In this document: positions 7,582 to 49,507 of the stretch, piece after piece | Layout of the letters: each line of letters starts with the position of its first letter | How positions within the stretch are numbered: the first letter of the stretch is position 1 | Assembly (NCBI GenBank): GCA_964291265.2 | Contig: OZ219747.1 | Span: forward strand, 3,904,001 to 3,968,000 | Direction of reading: 5' to 3' | DNA length: 64,000 nucleotides | Origin: Alphaproteobacteria bacterium | GTDB lineage: Bacteria; Pseudomonadota; Alphaproteobacteria; SP197 | Position numbers and translations under genes: made by a program | The notes under the pieces: generated by a model | The model's database searches: none | What the model was told of the DNA's origin: nothing | Seen by the model: the letters and a program-made list of their open reading frames with translations, nothing else

Positions 7582-7744
7582 ACACAAGACCCTCCCTGGT
7601 GTCCCTGCCATGTCGAGCGGGTGTGACAACCGGGAGACTTGCCCCCTGACGAGGAACGGCAGGCCTCCCCCTGTACTCGGTTGCCCGCAGCGTGTCGGCG
7701 CACGTCTCACGGGCGGCGGCACACCGACGTGGGCTGCCTGAAGA

Positions 7745-8698
7745 TCACGCCATGCGGGTGGAAGAGGCTGACAGGAAACGCCGGGCCAGGGTGATGATGT
7801 GGTCCGCGCTTCCGTCGTCACCGAAGGCATCGAGGAGCAGTGCCTCTTCGGCCTGATGGCGGAACCACGTGAACTGCCTGCGGGCGTAGCGTCGCGTTGC
7901 CCGCCTCGCCTCGTCACACGCCTCTTCGAGAGTGAGACGTCCGGTCAGGTGAGCCGTGAGACTAGCGAGACCGACACAACGTGTGGCCGGCAGGGATGGG
8001 GCGAGACGTCGTGCCGCGAAGGCCTCGGCTTCCTCGAGGGCGCCCGCTGCCATCATCCCGTCAAAGCGGCCAACCGCGCGTTCGAAGAGCAGGGCACGGT
8101 CAGGAAGCAGGCTGATCTGCCACAGTGGTCCCTTCCAACCTCCCTCGCGGGATCGCGTCATCCACTCGGAGAGCCGCGTTCCGGTGGCCTCGTGAACCTC
8201 GTGGGCCCGGGCGACCCGCTGGCCGTCGGTGGACGCAAGAACCACCGCCAGGTCCGGGTCGATCCGCTCAAGGTCGGCGTGAAGCGCTGCGGGGCCCTCG
8301 GTCGCCAGACGCTGGCGGACCCTTTCGCGGATGCCGCCCGGAATGTCCGGGATCGGCGCCAGTCCCTCGCGGAATGCCTTGAGATAGAGACCGGTCCCGC
8401 CGACAACGATCGGCACCAGGCCGGATGAGGACACCTCGAGGCAGATCCCGCGTGCACGACGATGCCACAGACCGGCCGAACAGGGTGCGGCCGCATCGAG
8501 AAAGCCGAAGAGGTGGTGCCCGCAGCGCGCTTCGTCCGAAGCCGTCGGACGGGACGTCAGGATCGCGAGATCTGCATAGACCTGCATGCTGTCGGCATTG
8601 ACGATGACGCCGCCCACGTCCTCGGCAAGGCGCATGGCGAGGTTCGACTTGCCCGATGCGGTCGGCCCGCCAATGAGGATGACCGGACCGGTCTCCAC
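7745..8698 (-). CDS. miaA: tRNA dimethylallyltransferase
   Basis: GPTASGKS, NADSMQVY, VGGTGLY, TRRYARRQFTWF; probable GTG start 8698. Confidence 0.95.
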   Translation of the reverse strand: METGPVILIGGPTASGKSNLAMRLAEDVGGVIVNADSMQVYADLAILTSRPTASDEARCGHHLFGFLDAAAPCSAGLWHRRARGICLEVSSSGLVPIVVGGTGLYLKAFREGLAPIPDIPGGIRERVRQRLATEGPAALHADLERIDPDLAVVLASTDGQRVARAHEVHEATGTRLSEWMTRSREGGWKGPLWQISLLPDRALLFERAVGRFDGMMAAGALEEAEAFAARRLAPSLPATRCVGLASLTAHLTGRLTLEEACDEARRATRRYARRQFTWFRHQAEEALLLDAFGDDGSADHIITLARRFLSASSTRMA

Positions 8699-8732
8699 GC
8701 CCTTGTTAAGCGCGCTCACCGGCGAAGGGGGA

Positions 8733-10203
8733 TCAACCGGAGATGTCCAGGGCCAGGTACCTCGGATCACCCTCGCGTTCGACGAGAACGACCACGGACC
8801 GGGCATTTCTTTTCCGTGCTGCCTCGAGGAGGTCCCTCACCTGCTGAACGGACTCCACCGCCTCGCGTCCGACATGGAGCAGGATGTCGCCGGCCTGGAC
8901 ACCTCCACGGTCCGCCGGGCCACCCGGTTCAACCCTCGCGACAACAAGACCCGTTGCCTCATCGTCAAGCCCGAACTCACGGGCAAGATCGGGGTTGACC
9001 GGACGGATCTCCATTCCGAGCAGAGCCTCTTGCCGGACATCCTCGGTGCTGTCGGCGCCGTCGCCTGTCTGGTCCGTGGCGCCGGCAAGGCTGGCTTCGT
9101 AGGCTTCGAGTTCTCCCAGCACCACATCGATGGCACGCTCCTCGCTGTCGCGGATGACGATGACCTCGACCTCGAGGCCTACCTCTGTCCGCACGACGGC
9201 ACGCGGCAATTCGCGCATGTCGTCAATCGGGATGCCGTTGAAGCTCACGATGGTGTCGCCGATCTGGAACCCGGCAGCTTCAGCAGGACTGTCAGGCGTG
9301 ACACTCGCCACAAGGGCGCCGCTCGCTTCGGGGAGACCGAGACCTTCGGCGATTTCCGGGGTGACCGGCTGAATGCGCACGCCGAGCCAGCCGCGGCGTG
9401 TCCGGCCATACTCCTTCAACTGGTGGACGACATGCGCCACCACGTTCGAGGGGACGGCAAATCCGATTCCCACGGATCCACCCGACGGCGAGTAGATCAG
9501 GGTGTTCACGCCGATGACCTCGCCGTCGATGTTGAACAGCGGTCCCCCCGAATTGCCGCGGTTGATGGGCGCGTCGGTCTGCAGGAACTGATCATAGGGA
9601 CCGGCGTTGATGTCCCGCTGGCGCGCCGAAATGACACCCGCCGTCACGGAATTGCCGAAGCCGAAGGGGTTGCCGATGGCAAGGGCGACATCTCCGATGC
9701 GCACGACATCCGAATCGCCGAAGGCCACCGCCGGCAACGTGCCGTCTGCCTCGACGCTGAGCAAAGCAATGTCGGTCTTGGAATCAGTCGCCACCACGGT
9801 GGCCTCGTGTTCGGTTCCGTCGTCAAGGCGCACGAGGATCTTCGAAGCCTTGTCGATGACATGGGCGTTGGTCACGATGTGGCCATCTTCGTGGATGATG
9901 AACCCGGATCCCAGCGCCCACGGCGCCGAGCGCGGCGCGCTGTTCTCCCTGTCAGGATTCTGCCGGTTGAAGAACCGCTCGAAGAACTCCTCGAACGGTG
10001 TTCCCGAGTAGGGATTGGTCCCTGAACGGTTTCCGTCGGCGACCTCGGTTTCGGTGAAGATCGATACCACCGAGGGAAGCAGGCGCTCCGCCAGGTCGGC
10101 ATGGCCTTCGCCCGTCCCGTGTGCATGGCTTGCGGTGCCGGAGAAACCGGCAAGGAGAAAAGTCAAAACAACAGGGAGATAACCAGTCCGGTTCATCGTC
10201 ATG
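8733..10203 (-). CDS. degP: DegP/DegQ (Do family) periplasmic serine protease with two PDZ domains
   Basis: GSGF, TNAHV, DIAL, INRGNSGGPL; signal peptide; exact start uncertain (10197-10229). Confidence 0.93.
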
Positions 10204-10229
10204 TCACGACCTCTGTCTAGGCATGTCAT

Positions 10230-10405
10230 TCAGCCGCGCAACAACCAGACGGCTGTCACGGCGGCCAGGTCTACCGGCAGACCGTTCGCACGGTGGACTG
10301 GGCCAGAACATGCACCATGGCCCGCTTCATGGCGCCCGGGAACTGTGCCCAGGCGACGCCTCGAGGAAACAGGGCCATGGCACGCGCCACAGCAAGGTCT
10401 GTCAT
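10230..10405 (-). pseudogene. Frameshifted DUF2065-like small membrane protein
   Basis: MTDLAVA..MALF..GVAWA.FPGAMKRAMVHVLAQ...AVWLLRG* at the usual hflC-degP position; 176 nt, frame broken. Confidence 0.6.
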
Positions 10406-10433
10406 CGGCGCCCGGTCAGACGGTGTTCCACCC

Positions 10434-11330
10434 CTATTCGGCGAATGTGTCAGAACGAGGGCCGGTCTGCAGGCCCTCGAAACTCGTCAGGAAACGCAGG
10501 AAGTCTCCGTCCGGCGACAGCACCAGTGTGGTATCCGTGGAATTGAGCGCCTCGCGATAGGCCTGCATGGTGCGATAGAACGTGAAGAAATCCACGTCGC
10601 GGCCGAAGGCCTCGGCAAAGATGCGCACCACTTCCCCGTCCCCCTCACCACGCAGGATTTCGGAATCGCGCCTTGCTTCCGACAGCAGCACGGTGCGGGT
10701 CCGGTCGGCTTCGGCGCGAATGCGCAATGACTGTTCCTCGCCTTCGGCGCGGATCTCGCTTGCCTCGCGCTCACGCTCGGTCTGCATGCGCCGGTAGATG
10801 GCCTGGCTGTTTTCCTGGGGAAGGTCGGTGCGCTTGATGCGCACGTCCGTCACCTCGATGCCATACTGCTCGGTCGCCCTGATCAGGGATTCCTGAATCG
10901 CGCTCATCAACGCCTCGCGTTCACCCGAAACGACATCGACCAGCGGCACGCGCCCGATGTGCTGGCGCAGCGTTCCGGTCAGCGTTCTCAGCATGAACCC
11001 CTCGAAACGGTCGATGGTGATCGCCGAGTTCTTGAACTTCAGGGGATCCGTGATTCGATAGAGTGCGAAGGCATCGACAACCAGGCGCTTCTGGTCCGAC
11101 GCGGTCACCTGTTCGGGCTCTCCATCGACCTGGATGATGCGTTTTTCGTAGTAGATGACGTCCTGCCAGGGAAGCTTGAAATCGAGACCAGGCTCGGTCA
11201 CCACCCGCTTGGGATCACCGAACTGGACGACGATCCCCTGCTCGTACTCGGCGACGGTGAAGACCGACATGGAACCGACCACCATGAGAGCGGCAACGGC
11301 GATGACTGAGAGAATGATCTTGATGTTCAT
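10434..11330 (-). CDS. hflC: FtsH protease modulator HflC
   Basis: SPFH domain; DVRIKRTDLP, RMQTEREREA, FFTFYRTMQAY. Confidence 0.95.
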   Translation of the reverse strand: MNIKIILSVIAVAALMVVGSMSVFTVAEYEQGIVVQFGDPKRVVTEPGLDFKLPWQDVIYYEKRIIQVDGEPEQVTASDQKRLVVDAFALYRITDPLKFKNSAITIDRFEGFMLRTLTGTLRQHIGRVPLVDVVSGEREALMSAIQESLIRATEQYGIEVTDVRIKRTDLPQENSQAIYRRMQTEREREASEIRAEGEEQSLRIRAEADRTRTVLLSEARRDSEILRGEGDGEVVRIFAEAFGRDVDFFTFYRTMQAYREALNSTDTTLVLSPDGDFLRFLTSFEGLQTGPRSDTFAE

Positions 11331-15710: not shown

Positions 15711-15739
15711 GTTGCATGGCGGCGGCGGTACGACTATAT
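15711..15739 (+). promoter_or_regulatory. ssrA promoter
   Basis: GTTGCA-N17-CTATAT, close to the alphaproteobacterial CTTGAC-N17-CTATAT consensus, directly upstream of tmRNA. Confidence 0.65.
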
Positions 15740-15744
15740 GACGG

Positions 15745-16003
15745 GTTGCCCGGTGCGCCGGGCTATGGCGATAAATGTCGTTCGGAATAGACGTTGCGGA
15801 CGCGGGGGCAGTACCCGCCGCCTCCACCATCAACCCATGGGGGCGAACCAGGATCGACGTGCGTGGCAAAGGTGCGATTTTCGCCCGGCATGATACCGCC
15901 GTTATCGGGTCAATCACACAAACGCCAACGACAACGAGGCGTTCGCTGTCGCCGCTTGAGCGACAAGCGCGGTTTGGAGGGCACCGGGCAACAGAAGCCC
16001 TCC
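15745..16003 (+). ncRNA. ssrA: Circularly permuted two-piece tmRNA, tag ANDNEAFAVAA
   Basis: Acceptor 3' part GCGGGGGCAGTACCCGCCGCCTCCACCA (ends 15829) precedes GGGGGCGAACCAGGATCGAC (15839); tag ORF 15924-15959; next to sspB; outer ends approximate. Confidence 0.95.
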
Positions 16004-16035
16004 GTCATGTCATTCCCTGACGGTCCGAACGAGCG

Positions 16036-16473
16036 ATGAGAGAATCCATCCACTATGGACTTCTGGTTGACGGCGCCCTGCGCAGCGTCGTGGCCCGCGC
16101 CCTTGAGATTGCCGCGCGTGACGGCTTGCCCGGTGAGCACCACTTCTACATCACTTTCCGTACCGACCACCCCGGCGTCAGGATGGCCAAGGCCCTGAAG
16201 GCCCGCTATCCCGAAGACATCACGATCGTCATCCAGAACCAGTTCTGGAATCTCGAAGTCGACGAAGAAGGTTTCTCCATCGGTCTTTCCTTTGATCGAA
16301 TGCCCCACGAACTCGGTGTTCCCTGGACCGCGGTCACCTCGTTCGTCGACCCAAGCGTCAAGTTCGGCCTGAACTTCAAGGCGGGCGTGGGGGAACCGGC
16401 CGCCGAGGAAGAGCCTGAGCCACCCGAAGGCGATGGCACCATCGTCTCCCTCGATGCCTTCCGCAAGAAGTGA
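16036..16473 (+). CDS. sspB: ClpXP specificity-enhancing factor (alphaproteobacterial SspB)
   Basis: GLPGEHHFYITF, YPEDITIVIQNQFW, FVDPSVKFGL, VSLDAFRKK tail. Confidence 0.93.
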   Translation: MRESIHYGLLVDGALRSVVARALEIAARDGLPGEHHFYITFRTDHPGVRMAKALKARYPEDITIVIQNQFWNLEVDEEGFSIGLSFDRMPHELGVPWTAVTSFVDPSVKFGLNFKAGVGEPAAEEEPEPPEGDGTIVSLDAFRKK

Positions 16474-35075: not shown

Positions 35076-35201
35076 TTCGGGACAGCCGTGAATGACGTAC
35101 TGTCACCGTTCCCGACGAATTCGGGCATGTCGGACCCATATCGCCCGAACCGAAATGCAACGCGGGAGCACCTTGGAAAGGGGCGACCGCAGGGGGATTC
35201 C

Positions 35202-35975
35202 ATGGCCGAAACCCGCAGAACGAAGAGCCTCGCCATCCTGATCGATGCGGACAACACCAGCGCGAAACACGCCCAACCGATCTTCGACGAGATCGTCAAA
35301 CTGGGCGAGGCCAACGTGCGCCGCATCTACGGCGACTTCTCGGCGGGCCGCCTTTCCGGCTGGGACGGGGCGATCAAGTCCCTGGCAATCCTGCAGCATC
35401 AGCAGCGCAGCAACTCGAAGGGCAAGAATGCGTCCGACATAGCGCTGGTGATCGATGCCATGGATCTCATGTACAAGCGCACCCTCGACGGAGTCGTGCT
35501 GGTGAGTTCGGACAGCGACTTCACGCGACTTGCCCAGCGTCTGCGCGAGGAAGGCCTTGAAGTGTATGGCTTCGGCGAGCGCAAGGCAGTCGAGGCCTTC
35601 CGCAACGCCTGCAACCGCTTCATCTATGTCGAGAACCTTCTGGATGCCGAACCGGAAGAGAAGAAGGTTGGAGCGACACCGGCCAAGACCGCGGCACAGA
35701 AAAAGGATCCTCCGAGCAAGGCCAGAAAGATCATAGTGGACGCGATCGGAGAACCGGATGCCGACGGATGGGAGAATCTGTCCAGCGTCGGGAGTCGCAT
35801 TCAGGGCGCGCATCCCGACTTCGACCCGCGCAGTTACGGATGCGCCAATCTGAGCACGCTGGTAGAAAAGTCGGGCCAGTTCGACATTAGAAAAGACCAG
35901 GGCACCGTCCATGTCCGTCAAAAACAAGATACCGCGCGAAAACGTTCGAGCACCGGGAGGACATCAGCGGCCTGA
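35202..35975 (+). CDS. NYN (LabA/DUF88 PIN-like) protein with C-terminal OST-HTH/LOTUS domain
   Basis: LIDADN, RRIYGD, GKNASDIALVIDAMD, SSDSDF, FDPRSYG...LS.L. Confidence 0.9.
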   Translation: MAETRRTKSLAILIDADNTSAKHAQPIFDEIVKLGEANVRRIYGDFSAGRLSGWDGAIKSLAILQHQQRSNSKGKNASDIALVIDAMDLMYKRTLDGVVLVSSDSDFTRLAQRLREEGLEVYGFGERKAVEAFRNACNRFIYVENLLDAEPEEKKVGATPAKTAAQKKDPPSKARKIIVDAIGEPDADGWENLSSVGSRIQGAHPDFDPRSYGCANLSTLVEKSGQFDIRKDQGTVHVRQKQDTARKRSSTGRTSAA

Positions 35976-36129: not shown

Positions 36130-36440
36130 ACGACGAAGGCTGCCGGGCCTGCGGTGCGCGGGCGGTCGCCCCTGGCCAGAGGGGCACGTTCTCCCCTCCT
36201 TCCGCACCGAAGTCACGTCATGAGCACCAGGCAGCCCTCCTCGATGTGCAGAAACTGCGCGATCCTCTCCTGGCGCTCCAGGAGCCAGTCCATGGCGCCA
36301 TGGAGCGCGTCCTCGCTGAGCCCCGCATCAAGGACCCCGCCCAAGGTTCTCACCGCCGCCGCCTCGGCCAGTCCTCATGCCGTGGCGAGTTCGAGGCGGG
36401 CTCCATGAGCCTCGCGGTTATCATGGCCAGCACCTGATCG
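36130..36440 (-). pseudogene. IS1634-like transposase remnant
   Basis: VLAMITARLMEPAS, EDALHGAMDWLLERQERI, EGCLVL fragments in shifting frames. Confidence 0.65.
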
Positions 36441-36909
36441 CGCCTTGTCGAGGGCTTCGGGCCGATCAGCTTCATGGGGCGGCATGGCACCGGTTTGCGC
36501 ACTCAAGGAGCACAGGCGATCAAGGGCCGAGGACATCGCGACGCTGATCGATCCGTCGCAGGAAAAGCGGAGAAGCGATGGCTGAACACCACCTGCGCGA
36601 GACGAAAATGGCCAGGCCCCTGACGCCTCGGCCGTGCGGAAATTCTCGTTGCTGACCCCCGACGACGACAGTTTCGATGACAACTGCGACGCCGCAGAGG
36701 ACTGCTCGTCTGACGGCTGAGCCACCATACCCTACCTCTCCCCGAGAGTCTCCACGCTTGTCGGTCGACAGCCAAGGATGGCGTCATGTACCCCCGCTTT
36801 GTCGAACACCTGATCCGCCAGGCCTGGCGAACATCAAGATCGGTTCTGATCTGTGGCTCCCGGCGATCGGCGAAGCTCGCAAAGCAATCTCCGGTTCGCA
36901 GGCGATACC

Positions 36910-38994
36910 TCAACCTGTCTGATCCAGTCCGAACAGGCCCATGAGCTCGTCACGGTTGAGACGTGTCGACAGATTGAGCGACACGTCATCGATCAGATCG
37001 TCGAACAAGGCCTGCTTTTGCTGAAGGATGGTGTCGATGCGCTCCTCGATTGTGTCTTCGCAGGTGTACTTGATCACATTGACCTTGACGGTCTGGCCCA
37101 TGCGGTGACTCCGGTCCTCGGCCTGCCGCTCCACGGCGGGATTCCACCATCGGTCGAGATGAAACACGTAGGACGCTTCCTGAAGGTTGAGACCAACACC
37201 CCCGGCACGCAACGAAATGATCAGGGCCTTGTGCCGCTCGCTCTCCTTGAACTTCTCGATGAGATCCATGCGTTCGGCAGGGGGCACCGCGCCGGTCAGG
37301 CACAGCGGATGAAACTCCCGCAGGTGATGTGCCGCGGCCGCGACGCCCGATGTGTTCCCGGTGTACTGCGAAAAGATCAGCGCCTTGTGCCCCTGCGCGG
37401 TCAGCTTGCCGAGCCTGTCATGGATGTCGTCGAGCTTGCTGGATGCTCCCGTTCTGGGATCGACATTGCAGATTTGCTTGAGACGCGTGATCAGCTCCAG
37501 AACATGATGGATCGTCGCCTCCCTGCCCAGCGACCTCAGATAGACAACACCGTCATGCTCGGCCTGATCGTAGCTCTTTCTCTGCTGTGGTTCGAGCGGG
37601 ATCCTGAGTTTGATCTCCAGCTTGGGAGGCAGGTCAACAAGCACATCGGCCTTCCGCCGCCGAAGCTGAAGTTCGCGGTGACGCTTCAACAACGAGGCGT
37701 CGGGACACAGGCGAACATCAACGTCGTCGGCGTCGTGATCGACAAACTCCATGATCGACGCCAGTTCATCGATGTTGTTCTCGATCGGAGTACCCGTCAG
37801 TGCCCATGAACGCGCTCTCGGCAGGTCTTTCGCCGCAGCGCTCGTCGGGTTGCGATTCTTGATCTTCTGCGCTTCGTCGAGAACGACCACGTCCCACGTC
37901 CTGCGTACCGGTCCCAGGTTGCGAAGGACATCGGCATCCATGCGCAGCACATCATAACTCACGAGAAGCACATCCTTGCGCGCTCGCCACTGCCATATGC
38001 GGTTGTCGGCCGAGCCGCGTATGATCATGGCGCTGATATCCGGCGCCCAACGTTCGATTTCCCGGCGCCATTGATCCAGAACACCGGCAGGGGCAACCAC
38101 GAGAGCCGATCTCAAGTCACCCTTCGCCTTGAGTATTCTCAAGGCGGCAATGGTCTGGACGGTCTTTCCAAGACCCATGTCATCCGACAACAGCAGCCTG
38201 TCCATCGTGACAAGCGTCTCGACACCCTGACGCTGGAAGGGCATCAGTTCACCCGACCATTTCAGACCGCCTTCCGGAAGGGCAACGGGGGCTGACCGGA
38301 CCCTTCGGGCGAGAACCATCCACAGTCGTTCGGCCAGACCGCGCACGGGCTCGTCCGCTTCTGGCGAGCCCGGCACAGATGAAGAAGACAATCCCCGCTG
38401 GCGCGACATCTCTCTCCACTTGTCGATGGCGCGGGGCGTGAGCGACATCAGCGCCACCACGCCCTGGATGTCGTTGGCAGTGCGGATCCGGGAGTCAGCG
38501 TAGGCCTCCAGAAGAGCCATCGTCACTCTCTCCAAGGGTTCGAACGGCTCGTCCGCATCCACGATATCGTCGATGAGTGAACCGGGAAGAGAAGGTGTTG
38601 CCGGTGGATCCGTCACCCACTGCAACCACTCTTGGGCGCCGGTGGCTCGGGGCTCCGGCGAGCGTCCCGAAGGAGGCATGATGAAGCAACAGGGTATGCC
38701 GAGGTTGAGGCTCCCGAGAAAGAATGGCGGTTCATCTTCCGAGGAGACAATGAGCAATGCGGGAGTAGTCGTGGTGGCCTCGAAGAGAGCACGACTCAAG
38801 GATACGAGGGCGTCGTTCCAGTCATCGTCCTGGTACGCCATTCGGACAAAACCGAACCCTAGTGGTTCACCTTGCGGCGAGGCTTCGAACAGTCCTGCAA
38901 GAACTCCGTCACCCGCCGGGTCGACGATGATCTGCAACCAGGCAATGGACGATGGATGGTTGTCCGGAACCGTGTTGCGAAAGGGAATGGGCAC
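36910..38994 (-). CDS. SNF2-family helicase with an uncharacterised ~250-aa N-terminal domain
   Basis: SDDMGLGKT, DEAQKIKN, LTGTPIEN, AGGVGLNL, WWNPAVERQAEDRSHRMGQ; start uncertain (GTG 38994). Confidence 0.9.
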   Translation of the reverse strand: MPIPFRNTVPDNHPSSIAWLQIIVDPAGDGVLAGLFEASPQGEPLGFGFVRMAYQDDDWNDALVSLSRALFEATTTTPALLIVSSEDEPPFFLGSLNLGIPCCFIMPPSGRSPEPRATGAQEWLQWVTDPPATPSLPGSLIDDIVDADEPFEPLERVTMALLEAYADSRIRTANDIQGVVALMSLTPRAIDKWREMSRQRGLSSSSVPGSPEADEPVRGLAERLWMVLARRVRSAPVALPEGGLKWSGELMPFQRQGVETLVTMDRLLLSDDMGLGKTVQTIAALRILKAKGDLRSALVVAPAGVLDQWRREIERWAPDISAMIIRGSADNRIWQWRARKDVLLVSYDVLRMDADVLRNLGPVRRTWDVVVLDEAQKIKNRNPTSAAAKDLPRARSWALTGTPIENNIDELASIMEFVDHDADDVDVRLCPDASLLKRHRELQLRRRKADVLVDLPPKLEIKLRIPLEPQQRKSYDQAEHDGVVYLRSLGREATIHHVLELITRLKQICNVDPRTGASSKLDDIHDRLGKLTAQGHKALIFSQYTGNTSGVAAAAHHLREFHPLCLTGAVPPAERMDLIEKFKESERHKALIISLRAGGVGLNLQEASYVFHLDRWWNPAVERQAEDRSHRMGQTVKVNVIKYTCEDTIEERIDTILQQKQALFDDLIDDVSLNLSTRLNRDELMGLFGLDQTG

Positions 38995-39029
38995 GGCGGC
39001 TTCTGTACGAATTCTGCCTTCGGAAAAAT

Positions 39030-40295
39030 CTACACCGACCCGTCTCCGGGGTCGTGTTCCACGGTGGTGTCCTCGCCATAGGAAGTGCTGTGCGCCAGGA
39101 ATTCCGTGTCGGGAAGGTCTGCGATATGCAGACGCCTCAGATCCCATTCATTGATTGCGGCGCGGACCTTGTAGCGCATGCGTCCCATGAACCCGGCACC
39201 CCCTGCTGTTGTCTGCGATGGCGGTGGCTCCCAGCCATAAGCCCGCTGGTAGAGGTGGCGCAGGGATTCCATGGTCGCCTTCACATAGTCGTTGTCCGGA
39301 ACAGCGAGTGCCACGCACTCGCGCTCAAGCAGACGCATACCTGTTTCTGCGCGACTCGAGATGTCACGGTAACGTACATTCTGCTCCAACCTTGGAGGCA
39401 CATAGTCCCTGTCCTTGCGCTGCCCGTCCGGACTGATGATGGCGGAGGCAAAGTCCGACGTGACGGCTCCCACCACGACAAGGCCAGGGTAGATCTCTCC
39501 ACGGGCGCGGCCCATCCAGCGGGCCATCTCGGCATAAGCCCGGCCACGCTGCAAGATCGAGTACGACCCGATCAGTTCAAGCTCGTCGAGCAACACCACC
39601 CATCCATTGTAACCGGCGCACTTGATCAACTCCACCATGAACCGCAGTCGCTGGGGCATCAGGGCAGCCGCCCCTGGCGCACGCAAGCTGTAGCTACCCT
39701 GTTCACCAACCTCTCGCAGCCCGCGCTTGACCTTGCCAATCACAATTCGTTCCCCTGCCCAGAATGACTCGATATCTGCGCGCAGAGCGTTGTCTTCAAG
39801 TTTCTCGTACACGCTCAGGCTTGCCGGAAGGAGAGGGCTCAGGACACCACGGGACGCTTCCTGATCGGCCCACCCGGAAAAATCACCGTATTCACTGGAC
39901 TTCCAGTCGATCGCATGACAGAGCTTTTCGATGAAACGGCCCCTGCCGTCCGGTGTCCGGCCGTTTTCCATGGCAGACGTGAACACCTTCCCGAGATCAT
40001 AGAACGGCGTTTCCTTGCTGATCGACACCTTGCTGCACACAAATCCCCGAGATAGTGCGAGGTGTTCCAGATGCTCCAGAAGGTGCGATTTCCCGGTTCC
40101 GAAATCCCCGGAAACAAGCATGCCGCCGGATACTTCCGCCTGGTTCTCTGTCGCCTGCAGCAACTCCAGAAATCGATTCTCGACAGCCGGCTGACTGCAG
40201 CCCAGCTCCCGAACCGCAGCCCTGTTGGGAACACCGTTGCGCAGGGCTTCCACCGCCATCCGGGCATCAAGAGTACCGCTTCCATCGATCGCCAT
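39030..40295 (-). CDS. DUF2791/BrxD-like P-loop ATPase (intact Walker A/B)
   Basis: AVEALRNGVP N-terminus, GDFGTGKSH, VVLLDELE; RBS GAGGG before ATG 40295. Confidence 0.8.
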   Translation of the reverse strand: MAIDGSGTLDARMAVEALRNGVPNRAAVRELGCSQPAVENRFLELLQATENQAEVSGGMLVSGDFGTGKSHLLEHLEHLALSRGFVCSKVSISKETPFYDLGKVFTSAMENGRTPDGRGRFIEKLCHAIDWKSSEYGDFSGWADQEASRGVLSPLLPASLSVYEKLEDNALRADIESFWAGERIVIGKVKRGLREVGEQGSYSLRAPGAAALMPQRLRFMVELIKCAGYNGWVVLLDELELIGSYSILQRGRAYAEMARWMGRARGEIYPGLVVVGAVTSDFASAIISPDGQRKDRDYVPPRLEQNVRYRDISSRAETGMRLLERECVALAVPDNDYVKATMESLRHLYQRAYGWEPPPSQTTAGGAGFMGRMRYKVRAAINEWDLRRLHIADLPDTEFLAHSTSYGEDTTVEHDPGDGSV

Positions 40296-40309
40296 GACAG
40301 ATGTCCCTC

Positions 40310-41260
40310 TCAGGAAAGCCTGACTAGGGCGGCGACCGGGTTGACGACATTGCGGTCGCGAACATCGTCCATCACCCGGGTGCGCAGGGCGCTGTAGATG
40401 CCCCAACCCCTCTGGGCATTCTCGTCCACGAACGTCTCGTCCGTCACCACAGCCAGCAAGCACGCCTGCAACCGGTCAGTGTTGTCGATGAACTCCCGCA
40501 GCACTTCGTAGTGATCGACGGTCATCGCCCTGGTGTAGTAGCGCAGACCGTCACGCGGATTGCGCGCCACCAACACCCGGGCGTTGTCGAGAAGAATGAC
40601 CGTTCCGGCGTGGCCGGCAAGGCGGATCCAGTAGAGTGCCGACTCGATGAAGTAGCGGGCGGTGGTCCGGTTGATGGGCGTGTACACTTCGAAGTGCCGG
40701 ACATTCCCGATGCGGGTGTTGGTCCCGGTCAACCAGTCGATGAGTGGTTGCCCTTCATCCCCGCTTCGATTTCGGGTCATCACGCACAGATGGTTCATCG
40801 CAACACGGAAGGCCCGGACCATGTCCGGGTTCCGCTGGACCCTGTCATGGAGAACGGGCCGCAGTTCTGTCAGGACATCCGACGGCTCAAGACCACTCGA
40901 CTCGGCAACGCCACCGACAACATCCAGAACATGCCGAGGGTCAATGCCGTCGACACGAAAGCCCCTTTCGCGCAGGATTCCCAAGGTAACGCGACGCGCC
41001 AAAAGAGGCCAGTCGAGTTGCGACGCGACGGCGAAGAAGATGTCCTGAGGCATGTGGACCCGGCAGCTCGCTGCATCAACCTTGACGAACACGTGCCCGC
41101 GTTCACCACAGCGCTCGCCAAGAGCCGTCGCAAGGGCCGGCCTTCGATCCTCTCGGGCGATGGCAACCTTGACAGCCGCGCCTCCTTCGCCGATCAAAGA
41201 TGACAGGTATTCGCGATCGATGACGTCGAGCCACTCATCGATCGTGATCGTGTCCGTCAT
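40310..41260 (-). CDS. DUF2791/BrxD-like paralogue with degenerate Walker motifs
   Basis: GGAAVKVAI strand not followed by GxxGxGK; VILLDNA in place of LLDE; YEVLREFID and YSALRTRV fit the family pattern. Confidence 0.7.
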   Translation of the reverse strand: MTDTITIDEWLDVIDREYLSSLIGEGGAAVKVAIAREDRRPALATALGERCGERGHVFVKVDAASCRVHMPQDIFFAVASQLDWPLLARRVTLGILRERGFRVDGIDPRHVLDVVGGVAESSGLEPSDVLTELRPVLHDRVQRNPDMVRAFRVAMNHLCVMTRNRSGDEGQPLIDWLTGTNTRIGNVRHFEVYTPINRTTARYFIESALYWIRLAGHAGTVILLDNARVLVARNPRDGLRYYTRAMTVDHYEVLREFIDNTDRLQACLLAVVTDETFVDENAQRGWGIYSALRTRVMDDVRDRNVVNPVAALVRLS

Positions 41261-42051
41261 CGTCGCGCCCCGGTGAAGCTGATGCCGTAGTATTCGGCAC
41301 TGTCTCCCTCGGGCCCGACAAACGTGAAGACATCCGACGAACGTCGGCGTGTTCCCGTTGACGACGGAAAGGACACCTCGGCGCCCTTCCTGGTCCGATG
41401 GGGGCCTTCAGACTGGAGGATGTAGAGGTCCCGCGCAAAGTCACTGCGGCCATATTCACGCGCCGCTCCCGGCAACGCCGTCATCAGTCTGTACAGTCTC
41501 ATCAAGGGCACCACGTGTGGGCTCAACAGGTCACGGGGTTCATCGCTCGTGACATCGCGATAGACGTTGTACAGCGACTCGAGAAACCGCGCCGACTGGA
41601 AGCTGGCCGTCTTCTGCTGTTCCTTCAGAAGGTGCTCCACCAGAAAGGACGGCCGTACCGTCGACACCTTCTTCCTGTCCACCCTGACGGCCCGCTCCGA
41701 AGCCAGCACCCGAAGGATCGATGGATAGCACATGAACAGACCATCGCGTTCATGGAGTTTCAGGCCGCCCTTCACGGCAGCTACCCTGAATTCCTCGGCA
41801 AACCGCTTCTCGAAGTACTCCCGTTCTTCCTCCTCTCCATACACCCAGCTCTCGCAGGCATCCGCAGCCCTATCCGCCAACTCCGCCACCGCATCATCAA
41901 GGTTGCTCCCGGCTCGCCTGACACCGGCGATGTTCCCTGTCTGCGCGGCCTTCACCAGGGCCCGAACCTGCGACAGCACCCCCTTGGCAGCCTTCTCCGC
42001 CACCCCGGCAGCCTCTTCCGTCTCGCGCAACGCCTCTTCCAGACTCTCCAC
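41257..42051 (-). CDS. Hypothetical protein, coiled-coil N-terminus; first gene of the ATPase-helicase operon
   Basis: 264-aa intact ORF, ATGA overlap with the next gene. Confidence 0.75.
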   Translation of the reverse strand: MESLEEALRETEEAAGVAEKAAKGVLSQVRALVKAAQTGNIAGVRRAGSNLDDAVAELADRAADACESWVYGEEEEREYFEKRFAEEFRVAAVKGGLKLHERDGLFMCYPSILRVLASERAVRVDRKKVSTVRPSFLVEHLLKEQQKTASFQSARFLESLYNVYRDVTSDEPRDLLSPHVVPLMRLYRLMTALPGAAREYGRSDFARDLYILQSEGPHRTRKGAEVSFPSSTGTRRRSSDVFTFVGPEGDSAEYYGISFTGARR

Positions 42052-42227: not shown

Positions 42228-42648
42228 ATGACACTGCCCCCCCGAATTGTCCGAGCTCAACCTCAGGCGCCGCGACATCCAGAACCAGCTTGCCGACCTT
42301 GGCGACCTGCGCCCCGGCTCGCTGACGCCGCGTTTCCGCAAGTGCGGCAAGCCCACCTGCCACTGTGCCGCCCAGGGAGACCCCGGTCACGGACCGAGCT
42401 GGTCGTTGACCTGGTCTGTCGAGGGCAAGACCCAAACCCGGATCATCCCCGCCGAGGCGGTCGAGGAAACCCAGGCGCAGATGGCCGAGTATCAGCGCGC
42501 CCGTGCTCTTATGCGTGAACTGTTCGAGGTCAGCACCCGGATGTGCGACGCGCAACTCGACGCCATCAAGACGATTCCAAAAAACACTTCGTCGCGGCGC
42601 TCGAACCGGAAGTCCGCCACGAGATCGTCAGCGAAGCGGCGAGCCTGA
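42228..42648 (+). pseudogene. DUF6788-like accessory ORF of the ISKra4 element (frameshift in C7)
   Basis: RPGSL..RFRKCGKPTCHCA...GHGP; GGAGG-ATG 42228 is out of frame by one C. Confidence 0.7.
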
Positions 42649-43926
42649 TCGGTGTCGGCGTGCTTGACGACTTCCAGGCGATCGAGACTGAGGCCCGGCG
42701 GGTGGCATGGCAGATCATGGGGCAGGCGGTCGCCGCGAAGCTCAACGCCGATCATGCCGACGATCAGGGCCCCTGCCTGTGCGGGTGCGGCGGCAAAGCT
42801 CGCTTCGCCGGCCGCCGGCCCAAGACCTTCATCACCGCCTTGGGCCCGATGACGCTGGAACGGGCCTGGTATCACTGCGACGGCTGTCACTCAGGCTTCA
42901 GCCCGCGCGACCGCGCTCTTGGCATGGAGAACACCTTCCTGTCGCCGGCGTCGCTGCGCATGATCGGCATCGCTGCCGCCAGGATCAGCTTCGAGGGCTC
43001 CAGCGCCCTGTTGCGCGAGTTGGCCGGCCTCGCCGTCGCACCGAAGACGGTGGAACGCCACGCCGAGGCTCTCGGACGTGAGATCGCAGGCGACGAACAC
43101 CGCGTCATCGAACCCGAGTTCGGCGATGCCCCCATCCTCTACCTCGGTCTCGATGGCACCGGCGTGCCGGCACGCAAGACCGAAGTCGCGGGGCGTGCGG
43201 GCAAGCAGCCCGACGGCGGCGCCAAGACCCGAGAGGCCAAGCTCGCGGTGGTGTGGTCGGCGGAAACCACCGACCAGGACGGCCGCCCCGTGCGCGATCC
43301 CGGTTCCTCCAGCGACAACGCGGCCATCGAAACCATCGCCTGCCGGGATACCGACGCCGAGCCCGCGCCCTTCGCACGGCGTATCCTGCGCGAGGCCCAG
43401 CGCCGCGGCTTCGACAGCGCAGCGCGCCAGGTCCTGCTCGGCGACGGTGCGCCATGGATAGGGAACTTCGCCAACGAGCACTTCCCCGACGCTGTCCAGA
43501 TCGTCGACATCTTCCACGCCAAGGGCCATCTGTTCGATGTCGCCAAGGCGATCTACAACACACAGCAGCGAGATCGGCGAACGATGGGCCAGAAAGCGGC
43601 GCGAGGAGCTTGATGAGGGCCGCGTCGACGACGTGATCGCCGCCCTGCTGAGCCATGCCGCAAGCTGCGAGGAAGCCCGCAAGAACGCCGAGTACTTCGC
43701 CACCAACCGGGAGCGAATGAACTATCCGAGGTTCAGGGCGATGGGCCTGTGCGCTGCCTCCGGCGTGGTCGAGGGAGGCTGCAAGAACATCGTCGGCACC
43801 CGCCTCAAGCAAGGCGGCATGCACTGGACCGTCGACGGCGCCAACGCCATCATCGCCCTGCGCTGCGCCGTCGAAAGCAACCGCTTCGACGACTTCTGGG
43901 AACGGCGCGCCAGCGCAAGAGCATGA
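42543..43926 (+). pseudogene. ISKra4 transposase, frameshifted near 43560
   Basis: LGLDGTGVP, GDGAPWI, VDIFHA, RMNYPRFRAMG..SGVVEGGCK, split over two frames. Confidence 0.85.
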
Positions 43927-45335: not shown

Positions 45336-46419
45336 GCAGAACGCTTAGACGAGGCAGGGCATGTGTAAGCGTTCGGCCGTTCGGTGATGGCTGATTTTGG
45401 TTGGTTTGGGTCTTGCTGACTATCGTCTGAGAAAGTGCTGGTAAACTCGTTTGGTCTCGATTATGGTCGAGGCCATGAAGACTTTTGCCGAGACGCGCGG
45501 AGCGACACAGCAGCTGACGGGAGGTGGTGACGGCCTATGTCGGGCGTCAGTGGCCTTGTCATGCGAGGCGCCTGACTGGCGTGCGCTCTATGAGGCGGAG
45601 CGGGTTCGTGCGGATGCGGCGGAAGCGCGTATGCGTGACCTGCGCCGTGCGAAGAATTCTGCCCGTGCCCGTGCGGGCACATTCAAGTTTCATCTCGACC
45701 GCACTCGTGATCAGCTCAAGGAGGCTCGCCGGGAGGTGAAGCGTGGACAGGCCCGAGCGGAGGCGCTGGAGCGGGAAAGGGACGCTCTGAAGCTCAAGAA
45801 CGCTGAACAGGCGAGCGAGCTGAGGAATCTCCGCGGGACGCGTGCCAAGCACGCGACGGCGCGCTTCGGGTCGAAGAGCGAGAAACGGAAGAAGAAGGAA
45901 GGCACCGGGAACAAGCGGGGTCAGCAACCCGGCAAGAGCGGCCACGGGCGCACTCCGCGTCCGAAGCTCAAGGAGAAGCACGAACGCCATGATCCACCGG
46001 CATCGCAGCGCACGTGCCCGTGTTGCGGCGAGCCCTATGTGGCCAACGGCAGCCACGAGACCTCGATCATGGAGGTCCATGTCAAGGCTCATATCCGGCG
46101 GATTGAACGTGGGCGTTGGCGCCGTGGTTGTCAGTGTTCGTCGGCGCCTGCGGAGATCATCGCGCCGCCACCTTTGCGCTTGCTTGCGAATACCCCCTTC
46201 GGCATCAGTGTCTGGGAATGCGTGCTCTATGAGCGCTTCGCCTGCTTGCGTCCCCTGCGCCGGGTCTCGCGATGGCTGGAAGACCAGGGACTGCCGATGG
46301 CGCCGGGAACGATCGCTGGCGGCATGAAGAAGATGACGCCGATGTTCGCGCCTCTCGCTCAGGCCATCCTCGATCATCAGAACCGGCTGACGGTGCGCCA
46401 CGGCGACGAGACCAGCTGG

Positions 46420-48338
46420 GTCGCGGTAGGGATGCGCATTGCTGCGCACCCCCCGCACAGATCCGGACATGGACGTTAATCCATCCGGCTCCTACCTCGG
46501 GTGCTTGACGGTAAACCGCTGGTCCGGCCATGGGTGGCGGATGGAGACGCGCGGCCAAAGAAGCTCGGTCATGCGCTCCAATCGCTTCCAGTCAAAGCAG
46601 TGGCGCTGGGAGCGGCGGCGGATCGCTCGCAGCCATAGGCGTTGCAGCCTTTGGCGGAACGTGCGCAGCCATCGGGTCGACCCCGGAACGGCGAAGTAGT
46701 TGGACCAGCCATTGACAACTCGCCCAAGCCACATGCCGACCTCCCATATGTCGTGATGCCGTCGATTGCGAAGCACCTCCTCGATGCGCGCCAGGGTCCT
46801 TGCGACCCGTTTTGCGACCGGCTTGCGACCAAGCCTGAAGCGTCCTCTCCGGGTCTCCGTGCAGAAGTGCGTGAAGCCCAGGAAGTCGAACGTCTCCGGC
46901 CTGCCCGCCCCGCGAGATCGCCGGTTCGCCTTGGCAAACCGTCCAAACTCAACGAGACGGGTCTTGTCCGGGTGAAGGGTGAGACCAAAGCGGTCCAGCC
47001 TCTCCCGAACGTCGCGAAGGTATGTCTCCGCATCCCGCTTATGCTGGAACCCGACCACAATATCGTCCGCGTAGCGGACAATGATCGCTTTACCGTTCGG
47101 AACCTTCGGACGCCATGCCTTGTGAAACCACAGATCGAGCACGTAGTGCAGAAACACGTTCGCCAGGCAGGGGCTGACAATGGCGCCCTGAGGCGTGCCC
47201 GCACCGGTGTCGCTCCATGATCCGTCGGTCATGACGCCAGCGTTCAGCCACTTGCGGATCAGACGGATCACCCGCCTGTCGCCAATGCGATGCTCCAGGA
47301 ACTTGATCAACCAATCCCTCGGGATTGTGTCGAAGTACCCCTGAATGTCCGCGTCGACTATCCAGTTGACCTTGCGCCGCTCGATCCCGAACGCCAGGGC
47401 GTCGAGAGCGTCATGCGCCCCTCGGCCCGGTCGGAACCCGTAGCTGAAGCCAAGGAACTCCACCTCATAAATCGGTGTCAGGATCACATCCACAACCGCC
47501 TTCTGGACGATCTTGTCCTCCAGTGCGGCAATCCCGAGCGGTCGTGTCCCGCCGTCCGGCTTGGGTATCTCAACCCGCCGAACCGGCGGCGCCCGGTACG
47601 CTCCCCCACGATGCAGGCGCGAGTGCAGATCAAGCAAGCGCTCGTCCAGACCCTCGCCATACGCCGCCCACGTCACGCCGTCGACACCTGCCGAGGCTTC
47701 CTTCTTCAAACCGAAGTAGGCCGCCCGGAGCGCGTCCGGCGTAATGTGATGGAAGAGTGCAGTGAGACGCTCCTTCGGGTTCCTCTCTGCAGCTTCCCGT
47801 ATCCGGTCCGCCGCCTGTGGCACACTTGCCCGACACTGCGTTCGGTGCGTGCTTTGGCGTCCCGGATTCCCCTTGGTTGAGGCCCTTTCCTCCAGCGACT
47901 CCGCAGAAGCTGACGCTCCCTTGTTCGCCGCCTTCACCGGTCTTACGGCCCCATCCGACTTCTTCAAACCGTTCCTCATAGGCTTCGGCTTTCTCCTTTC
48001 CCTACACGGTCCCGCCACGACAGGCGGGATAGTTCGAAGACCTCCCAGGGTCCCAACAGAAGGCGTGCGGACGTGCATGGGTTCTCCGACACCGCGGGGC
48101 TCGCCGACATCTCACCAAATCGATGCCTGCGATGTTGCCTTCGACCGATGCGAAAGCCTCGGCACCCCGAACAACGGACTTTTCGGTGCTCATTAGCCCT
48201 GCCCATCCGTACCGCTACCGACGCTTCGCCTGCCCCCTCGCGGGAACCGACGCACGGCTCGCGGAGAAACGTGGTTTGGTTACTCCTTCGTTTCAGGGGA
48301 CTTTCACCCCCTACCTTCCGCCAGTTCGCCTGGCACAC
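46420..48338 (-). mobile_element. Group II intron (1919 nt, class E-like), antisense to the transposase
   Basis: 5' GTGTG at 48338; D5 GAGCCGGATG...TCCGGATCTGTGCGGGGGG; 3' end CCCTACCGCGAC at 46420; EBS1/EBS2 pair with the 5' exon. Confidence 0.93.
46492..48078 (-). CDS. ltrA: Group II intron reverse transcriptase/maturase, no endonuclease domain
   Basis: AGVDG, RPLGI, SYGFRPGR, GTPQG, RYADD, FDFLGFTH; true start may be internal. Confidence 0.95.
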   Translation of the reverse strand: MHVRTPSVGTLGGLRTIPPVVAGPCRERRKPKPMRNGLKKSDGAVRPVKAANKGASASAESLEERASTKGNPGRQSTHRTQCRASVPQAADRIREAAERNPKERLTALFHHITPDALRAAYFGLKKEASAGVDGVTWAAYGEGLDERLLDLHSRLHRGGAYRAPPVRRVEIPKPDGGTRPLGIAALEDKIVQKAVVDVILTPIYEVEFLGFSYGFRPGRGAHDALDALAFGIERRKVNWIVDADIQGYFDTIPRDWLIKFLEHRIGDRRVIRLIRKWLNAGVMTDGSWSDTGAGTPQGAIVSPCLANVFLHYVLDLWFHKAWRPKVPNGKAIIVRYADDIVVGFQHKRDAETYLRDVRERLDRFGLTLHPDKTRLVEFGRFAKANRRSRGAGRPETFDFLGFTHFCTETRRGRFRLGRKPVAKRVARTLARIEEVLRNRRHHDIWEVGMWLGRVVNGWSNYFAVPGSTRWLRTFRQRLQRLWLRAIRRRSQRHCFDWKRLERMTELLWPRVSIRHPWPDQRFTVKHPR

Positions 48339-49162
48339 CGCATCCAGTCCCTCAAGGCCTCGGGGCGCTCGCAGAAGGCCTGGCTGTGGACCGCGGTCAG
48401 CGCCGACTCCGTCTTCTTCCTTATCGACCCGTCACGCAGCACCCGGGTGGCCATGGTGCTGTTCGCCTCCACCGAAGGCACCGTCTTCCTTGTCTGCGAT
48501 CGCTACGCGGTCTACAGGAAACTGGAGCGTGAGCTTGATGGCAAGGTGATCCTCTGCCTTTGCTGGGCGCACTCCAGGCGCGATGTGATCGAGGCTGCGG
48601 CAGGCCAGGAGGGGCTGGAAGAGTGGTGCGACAAGTGGCTCGACAGGATCGCGCTGATCTACACACTGAATGGGCAACGGCTGAAGCACTACGATCCCGC
48701 ACGCAAGCGTCAGTCAGCGAGGTTCAATGCCCTGCAGAAGGACCTTCGTGCGGCTGTCGAGGCGCTGTTCAGGCAGGCTCAGGAGGAACTCGACGCCTTG
48801 CCCGAGGGTGCACGCGAAGCGAAGCCCTTGCGTTCCCTGATCCGTCACCGCGAGGGACTGTGCGTCTTTGTCGACCATCCCCAGGTGCCCATGGACAACA
48901 ACTTTGCCGAGAGAGCCCTCCGGGGTGCGGTGACCGCGAGAAAGCTGAGCTTCGGCTCCGACAGCGAGGAAGGCGCCGCCTTCACCGCCATCATGTACTC
49001 GGTCATCGGCACCCTTGCCATGAACAACATCAATGTTCGGCGCTGGCTTCATGAGTGGCTTGAGGCCTGCGCGCAGAACGGCGGCAAGCCGCCGGATGAC
49101 CTCGACCCGTGGCTGCCATGGTCGATGACCCCGGAGCGCCGACGGGACCTCATGGAACCGGG

Positions 49163-49507
49163 GTGATCGAGTGCCGTTACGACGGCCGTGACTTCACCGC
49201 GCACGAGATGGCGCTGCGCTCCCTGATCACCCAGCACCCCACCCGTGCGGCCATCGCCCGCGCCTTCTGCCGCAAGACCGGCTGGTACAAGCCCGACGGC
49301 GGCCTCAAGAACATGATGGCGAGTGTCACCTTCCTGGCCATGCACCGCGCTACACAGGCGCCGTCTACAAGGCGTCGGGTTGGATCCATGTCGGCACCAC
49401 CAAGGGGCGCGGACGCTACGATACGCACAGGAAACTCGACAAACCAAAAAAAGGACATCTGGCTGAGGCCTCTCCGCAAAGACTGGAAACTCATCCTCAA
49501 CCGGTGA
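49163..49507 (+). pseudogene. Internally deleted DUF4338-like passenger gene of the IS66 element
   Basis: RYDGRDFT..E, R.AIARAFC...W.KPDGGLK, then KPKKDIWLRPL..DW; GTGA overlap with the transposase stop. Confidence 0.6.

Follow-up and report, generated by a model that had tools for sequence, protein, structure and literature searches.

The 64,000-nucleotide stretch analysed here (the window: positions 3,904,001 to 3,968,000 of contig OZ219747.1, assembly GCA_964291265.2, from an alphaproteobacterium of GTDB lineage SP197) carries on its minus strand a cassette of four genes (A-B-C-D, window positions 42051 down to 36910), which encode a protein of no named family, a degenerate and an intact BrxD-like AAA+ ATPase and an SNF2 helicase. 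Our analysis suggests that the cassette is an unnamed system, a variant of the theme that sets a BrxD-type ATPase beside a helicase, and that its function is probably defensive. That the four-gene form would act against foreign DNA, be it from phages or plasmids, we regard on comparative grounds as fairly probable, and somewhat more so if the helicase-free unit A-B-C found in other genomes is defensive as well.

All four genes are genuine and intact, and purifying selection acts on them. They were recovered as whole, co-oriented and uninterrupted open reading frames (ORFs), as had been claimed in a preliminary description of the window: gene A (42051-41257, 264 amino acids (aa)), gene B (41260-40310, 316 aa; degenerate BrxD-like ATPase of the clade of the origin recognition complex (ORC) and Cdc6, PF10923), gene C (40295-39030, 421 aa; BrxD-like ATPase, PF10923) and gene D (38994-36910, 694 aa; Pfam SNF2 and Helicase_C, in agreement with the helicase type first assigned). 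Remeasured, their tight packing was as described, with an ATGA overlap between A and B and gaps of 14 nt between B and C and 35 nt between C and D, where D begins with a GTG codon that is backed by homologues beginning MPIPF. Contigs from two further sequencing runs of one study also span the cassette; no sigma-70-like promoter was found for it. Pairwise comparison with related loci (five for A, four for B to D) gave ratios of nonsynonymous to synonymous substitution (dN/dS) of 0.09-0.31 overall at dS 0.5-1.1, namely 0.16-0.20 for A and likewise for B, 0.12-0.15 for C, 0.09-0.13 for the motor of D and 0.24-0.31 for its head, the fastest-evolving part. Since the gene order is, in addition, kept in 68 of 80 loci from GTDB genomes, the cassette is not a chance cluster of ORFs.

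These 80 loci are the best of 232 relatives found by a GTDB scan with A, and they answer the earlier question of whether the order recurs elsewhere: 68 show A-B-C-D (a few frameshifted or contig-cut), ten A-B-C only, one is contig-cut and in one B and C are gone owing to an insertion element. Their hosts fall in Pseudomonadota, Chloroflexota, Acidobacteriota, Binatota and Gemmatimonadota, lineages that we take to be typical marine sponge symbionts. In a tree of C (sequences sampled by similarity, midpoint root only) the window and the GTDB loci form one well-supported group with phyla interleaved. The distribution is patchy: gene A occurs in 8 of 22 genomes of the same genus, the 14 without it being mostly near-complete, in none of 10 other family members and in none of 28 members of the class. 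Random sampling gave 0/300 for Pseudomonadota, 16/200 for Chloroflexota and 4/200 for Acidobacteriota, the latter with one marginal match more, while 200 genomes of a fourth phylum held four distant homologues and one marginal match. We count both the patchiness and the mixing of phyla in the C tree as points that may favour defence. In one congener (L194, G015:C4 near 632148) the first 137 residues of A remain and B, C and D are gone, a case of loss in progress.

Central to our reading is the pair of ATPases. Both match PF10923 (BrxC_BrxD; cut-off 22.2), C at E 3.9e-17 (62.7 bits) and B at E 1.1e-9 (38.2 bits), and the NCBIfam model of BrxD, cut-off 350, gives them 51.9 and 30.8 bits, respectively. 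The motifs first noticed in the window, GDFGTGKS with LLDE in C and LLDN without Walker A in B, are present as described and hold in the alignments: Walker A in 130, Walker B in 129 and an AL..R-type motif in none of 131 C sequences, as against 0/149 for Walker A, 0/149 for the Walker B glutamate and 148/149 for [AP]L..R in B, which also lacks the lid and has D-N in place of D-E. The arginine of AL..R in B (R295) is invariant in one alignment of B and, judged by position, presumably the arginine finger; C for its part has an invariant C-terminal arginine, R374, the presumed sensor 2. A segment of B, GGAAVK, lines up with the strand preceding the intact P-loop of active B-type paralogues, which share AL..R, and the ATPase tree splits B-type from C-type lineages (98/95, on long branches). 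HHalign of B against C is weak (probability 28-48%), so that the paralogy is drawn from the shared PF10923 matches and from bridge sequences; by this comparison B and C are paralogues, and B goes back to an active copy of BrxD type. B likely completes the ATP site of C with its arginine finger, an assignment made by position and analogy. Donation of such a finger from one subunit to another has a precedent in Orc4-Orc1. A closer one comes from type 1 bacteriophage exclusion (BREX), where the crystal structure described in PMC13326643 has the dead BrxB giving R182 to the ATP pocket of BrxC, with ATPase activity up 2-6 fold. The idea of an active/inactive ATPase heteromer, put forward in the preliminary description, is thus well supported by complementary motif loss, natural B-C fusions and the BrxB/BrxC precedent.

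Protein A is likely a DNA-binding or adaptor subunit, as far as models allow. It had no match in Pfam, PADLOC, NCBIfam or PHROGs, Foldseek against the Protein Data Bank (PDB) and viral models returned none at E 0.001, and the ESM Atlas offered unnamed clusters only, for a family that comprises 808 clusters at 50% identity. AlphaFold2 models (pLDDT 86 and 84) predict a two-helix coiled coil (residues 1-70), a beta-meander (70-147) resembling the C-terminal domain of MotA and CyaY, and a C-terminal winged helix (148-261). A whole-protein VIA search was swamped by the coiled coil; in the VIA-align structural scan, 37 of the top 50 rows fell on residues 148-261, mostly winged-helix domains at Z 4.7-6.0 (Polycomblike 6.0 with a root-mean-square deviation of 2.9 over 77 aligned residues, Ash2L 5.7, ORC/MCM 5.2, forkhead, histone H5), and 12 on residues 70-147 (Mediator subunits 6.1, the C-terminal domain of T4 MotA 5.9, CyaY 5.9). 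As all of these stay below Z 8, they speak for a fold class, not a family. The invariant residues F205, R207 and D208 sit in what is expected to be the recognition helix, and the net charge of the winged-helix domain is only slightly positive. Prediction of an A-B-C complex scored 0.00 and gives no call on contact. According to PMC12839542, the ATPase of BrxC is followed by a winged helix whereas BrxD lacks one, so A may supply it in trans.

Helicase D consists of an SNF2 translocase core (36910..38274, residues about 241-694; Pfam SNF2 1.6e-47), whose motor motifs I, II, III and VI are present in 66/66 sequences, and of the extra N-terminal domain to which the preliminary description had drawn attention (38425..38994, residues 1-190). 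The latter proved homologous to a stand-alone gene, E, of about 185 aa, which environmental relatives have between C and their helicase gene, as judged by hidden Markov model (HMM) matches to separate ORFs. These relatives stem from a metagenome scan with divergent A sequences, which found 577, the best 80 being kept (many on contigs too short to score); the divergent loci have the order A-B-C-E-D with E as a separate gene. Searching with the alignment of fused domains alone gave no homologue of E and 403 once stand-alone sequences were added; none of the 120 listed bears a Pfam annotation. There was no PDB match, and the ESM Atlas gave unnamed leads below 0.9 only. What sets many divergent relatives apart is a nuclease: of 23 complete helicases from divergent metagenome loci, 16 carry a fused Mrr_cat domain (E 6e-25) and the other seven end after the motor (12 with versus 6 without when identical C sequences are dropped), and the fusion recurs in 3/9 SNF2 genes of a random Chloroflexota sample. 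The tails keep D.G[IV]DL in 16/16 and QCK in 14/16. An HMM of the Mrr tail had no match in the window or in loci L001-L081, so the window copy, in which E is fused to D, lacks an Mrr nuclease, as does its clade. Directly after the Mrr-bearing cassette in two loci (L088, at 7704-11306, and L089) lie genes for an ORC-CDC6-like protein of 871 aa with a C-terminal nucleoside deoxyribosyltransferase-like domain and for a 327-aa protein, possibly another defence pair.

In the model we favour, A and the B/C pair would recognise DNA, A via its predicted winged helix, B would lend its arginine finger to the ATP site of C, and the resulting ORC-like loader would place the SNF2 motor D on DNA or activate it. 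In the window copy, which has no nuclease, D may then block or strip invading DNA without cutting it, by analogy with the exclusion exerted by BREX, which according to the relevant part of PMC13326643 restricts phages without wholesale DNA degradation. In relatives with Mrr, that loader would bring in a nuclease and the target would be cut, for which there are precedents in ZorD (PMC11890865, in part) and HmaA (PMC11232893, likewise). The Mrr fusions lend support, at the level of sequence, to a role in defence. Defence by a nuclease-less A/B/C loader and an SNF2 motor that blocks or strips foreign DNA is, by analogy, a tentative proposal to which we give somewhat less than an even chance. A sharper version, a new class of defence machine in the shape of a miniature ORC, in which an ancient ORC/Cdc6-type pair shares one active site, a separate winged-helix protein recognises DNA and the superfamily 2 (SF2) motor is swappable (SNF2 or Lhr), with no nuclease, toxin or methylation in the cross-phylum clade, we hold to be rather doubtful.

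Several observations weigh against our proposal. No effector is recognisable in the window copy, and HmaA, a defence protein of SNF2 type, depends on its nuclease according to PMC11232893. Helicase-free A-B-C occurs in 10 of 80 GTDB loci, 4 of 16 Chloroflexota and three Acidobacteriota loci, and domain E, sought in five genomes with A-B-C only, was found nowhere in them (as a control, five carrier genomes all matched, three of these being rows of the query). B and C, with a mean column identity of 65-67%, are far more conserved than the BrxB sensors, which section 21 of PMC12839542 portrays as fast-evolving, and a variable K/R near the finger position of C implies that C may not depend wholly on B. 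The winged-helix match of A is, at Z below 8, a moderate one. The uvrD-prmA flank adjoins the cassette in two other species of the genus at dS 0.6-1.1, and a position kept in at least two other species is unusually stable for a defence gene. Many copies lie among housekeeping genes, and the enrichment of defence genes nearby, in itself a point in favour of defence, is small: genes for defence, toxin-antitoxin systems or nucleases make up 18/120 of the nearest neighbours as compared with 8/116 far ones (more than 6 kb upstream; sets deduplicated from 151 and 127), a modest enrichment that is not significant for defence genes alone (p 0.06) and reaches 25 versus 12 (p 0.03) with mobile genes added, all this with script-called ORFs, our own labels and related loci that are not independent.

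An alternative that we consider unlikely keeps sensor, loader and defensive role as we propose, but has the nuclease-less form draw on a separate enzyme in trans (Mrr, HNH or NYN, each as a protein of its own) or on a cryptic nuclease in domain E. Candidates for a separate enzyme do exist. The genome holds a stand-alone Mrr gene (C2:1179294-1180211) and a second Mrr_cat match, a convergent NYN gene lies in the window, and in one locus (L166) a second Mrr directly follows the cassette. An HNH nuclease gene is, next to that of an ABC-transporter binding protein (14 loci), the commonest neighbour among the 80 GTDB loci; its product, of 295 aa (L024:8873-9760 and 12 other loci, upstream of A in most), has an HKPLL motif and is, we presume, of the phosphorothioate-binding type. 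The 13 HNH cases are largely one lineage, however, mostly Caldilineaceae, and the clade without Mrr has no nuclease gene as a constant neighbour; across the 80 loci, no further conserved gene of any sort was found. As for a cryptic nuclease, domain E does have two near-invariant acidic positions, D87 (D/E in 52/52) and E152 (50/52), but only these two; its first strand does not end in an acidic residue, and a comparison with endonuclease V by HHalign, made with a shallow profile of three sequences, gave 0.2% probability.

Also unlikely, to our minds, is a machine for the upkeep of host DNA (repair, fork restart or the clearing of stalled proteins or RNA polymerase), at times armed with a nuclease and spreading among co-occurring bacteria. 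Strong purifying selection and the stable uvrD-prmA position would fit such a role, as would the majority that nuclease-less and helicase-less forms make up in random samples and the pairing of ATPases with an Lhr-type helicase in a distant form. Nor were relatives found in IMG/VR (17 pattern matches, none confirmed), among PLSDB plasmids or among INPHARED phages. A maintenance function is, on the other hand, hard to square with the lack of gene A in 14 of 22 congeners, whose genomes are mostly near-complete, with the recurrence of Mrr fusions and with the nearest named relatives of the parts, which by sequence are all defence proteins (BrxD, SngB, ZorD).

The wider family raises the option, in our view distinctly unlikely, that A-B-C is itself the functional unit, for instance an abortive-infection or DNA-sensing switch, and the helicase an optional accessory. 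A-B-C is present throughout while its partners differ, which makes it the invariant core around which E, helicase type and nuclease vary. In 16 randomly drawn Chloroflexota loci it was seen in all, followed by SNF2 in nine and by no helicase in four, three being contig-cut; of the Acidobacteriota loci three are A-B-C only and the fourth is broken, and helicase-free loci also occur in Vicinamibacterales and at L181. One long metagenome locus (L122) has A alone, and in another (L153:2527-8248) gene A is followed by two tandem B-C fusions (758 and 777 aa) and no helicase. The partner helicase is of SNF2 type in some loci and of Lhr type in others: in the four remotest loci an A-like gene comes with two ATPases, both with Walker A, and in three of them (L182-L184; L182:8018-17289) a protein of roughly 1960 aa follows, with a DEAD/Lhr-type helicase at its start and a Upf1-type one at its end. 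We regard this variant as a separate candidate system; in L182 several toxin-antitoxin genes in a row adjoin it. Two further loci (L174:38-2487 and L178:22-2897) have a BrxD-like fragment and a BrxHI-like (Lhr) helicase just upstream of A-B-C and no other BREX genes in the stretch seen. Against a self-sufficient A-B-C stand the lack of a recognisable toxic domain in A, B or C, the intact D of the clade to which the window belongs (dN/dS 0.09-0.13 for its motor) and the nesting of A-B-C-only rows within the clade that has a helicase, a pattern suggestive of repeated loss. That the cassette serves a mobile element as a helper, for example as a targeting ATPase in the manner of TnsC, is highly improbable and already largely refuted by the lack of a conserved recombinase: the window flanks are rich in insertion sequences and TnsC is the best PDB match of the C profile, though only across the Walker A region and with an E-value of 0.018, but neither a transposase nor an integrase nor an end repeat is a conserved feature of the 80 loci and the phage, plasmid and viral collections gave no match.

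Around the cassette, the decayed island seen earlier stands in so far as an IS66 transposase gene (45451-49166) is split by a group II intron reverse transcriptase gene (46492-48078, minus), a DUF6788 gene with a split transposase-like reading frame (42247-43926, plus; high-copy by contig depth in one run) lies directly upstream of gene A, and the remnant at 36171-36470 belongs to a multicopy element with more than 20 copies elsewhere in the genome at about 80% identity. It does not extend to the convergent nuclease gene with NYN and OST-HTH domains (LabA-like; 35088-35975, plus), which looks intact and is not kept beside the cassette in most loci. A decayed, weakly Mrr_N-like fifth gene (36913-36503) had also been suspected; we drop it, as it had no match in Pfam, PADLOC or NCBIfam, did not resemble a genuine Mrr protein and had homologues in none of the loci retrieved. 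Farther away, ARAGORN places a permuted, two-piece transfer-messenger RNA gene at 15735-16050 (plus) with the tag peptide ANDNEAFAVAA.

With 808 clusters of A and occurrence in about 8% of sampled Chloroflexota, the cassette is a common accessory operon of uncultured bacteria. Its minimal four-gene form isolates the BrxD-type ATPase and helicase, the least understood piece of BREX and Shango, without methylase or PglZ, and so makes the role of BrxD directly testable. The relatives form a natural series, from two active ATPases over one shared site to a fusion, with or without nuclease and with or without helicase, which should be useful for dissecting asymmetric AAA+ loaders and nuclease-independent exclusion.

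How, then, does the cassette compare with described systems? Neither the literature nor the library models searched name or describe the operon (subscription papers and the supplement of one BREX review lay outside this search), and a term search for BrxD in the available parts of two preprints (PMC12458937; 10.1101/2025.09.30.679545) returned no mention. The preliminary description took it for a self-contained system distinct from BREX and Shango, and this holds, also with regard to Zorya. PglZ, not visible in the window, is missing altogether from the 100%-complete genome, where PF08665 had no match (as a control it matched 2 of 14 genomes), and the 80 loci show no conserved PglW, PglX or PglY neighbour. 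B and C do not match DUF499 and a conserved methyltransferase was not found, which also sets the cassette apart from the BREX-related (BR) DUF499 class.

Close in design is the BrxD-BrxHI dyad of type 2 BREX (Pgl), in which a PF10923 ATPase of the ORC/Cdc6 clade lies beside an SF2 helicase and is proposed, in section 24 of PMC12839542, to load or activate it; the distant loci L182-L184, with an A-like gene and two BrxD-type ATPases next to an Lhr-type helicase, show a similar pairing. Unlike the dyad, the cassette has two complementary ATPases, a helicase of SNF2 and not Lhr type and, as new proteins, A and E, it lacks PglW/X/Y/Z, and its C, though above the Pfam cut-off, falls far short of that for BrxD. 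Type 1 BREX offers a second parallel in BrxA, BrxB and BrxC, that is, a helix-turn-helix (HTH) or winged-helix protein, a dead, arginine-donating AAA+ protein without Walker motifs and lid and an active AAA+ protein (PMC13326643 in the parts concerned; PMC12839542, sections 20-21). Here, however, B is strongly conserved and shows no sequence relationship to BrxB models, A combines a coiled coil, a beta-meander and one winged helix in place of two or three HTH units, and there is neither methyltransferase nor PglZ.

Shango (the TerB protein SngA, the ATPase SngB and the helicase SngC) likewise joins a stand-alone accessory protein to a BrxD-like ATPase and an SF2 helicase without any modification enzyme, and C matches SngB at E 2e-6. 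Shango is defined by TerB, though, at least in the relevant part of 10.1101/2022.05.11.491447, and A has no TerB (no Pfam or PADLOC match, and its model differs); there are two ATPases, not one, and D is of SNF2 and not DEAD/Lhr type, SngC lying outside its 25 best PADLOC matches. With ZorD of type I Zorya and with HmaA, finally, the five-gene relatives share an SNF2 helicase bearing a C-terminal Mrr-like or PD-(D/E)XK nuclease, and ZorD1 is the best PADLOC match of D (4.7e-79), albeit with a score of 141.5 against a cut-off of 1500; ZorA, ZorB and ZorC are missing from the cassette and its conserved neighbours, as are HmaB and HmaC, and the window copy has no nuclease.

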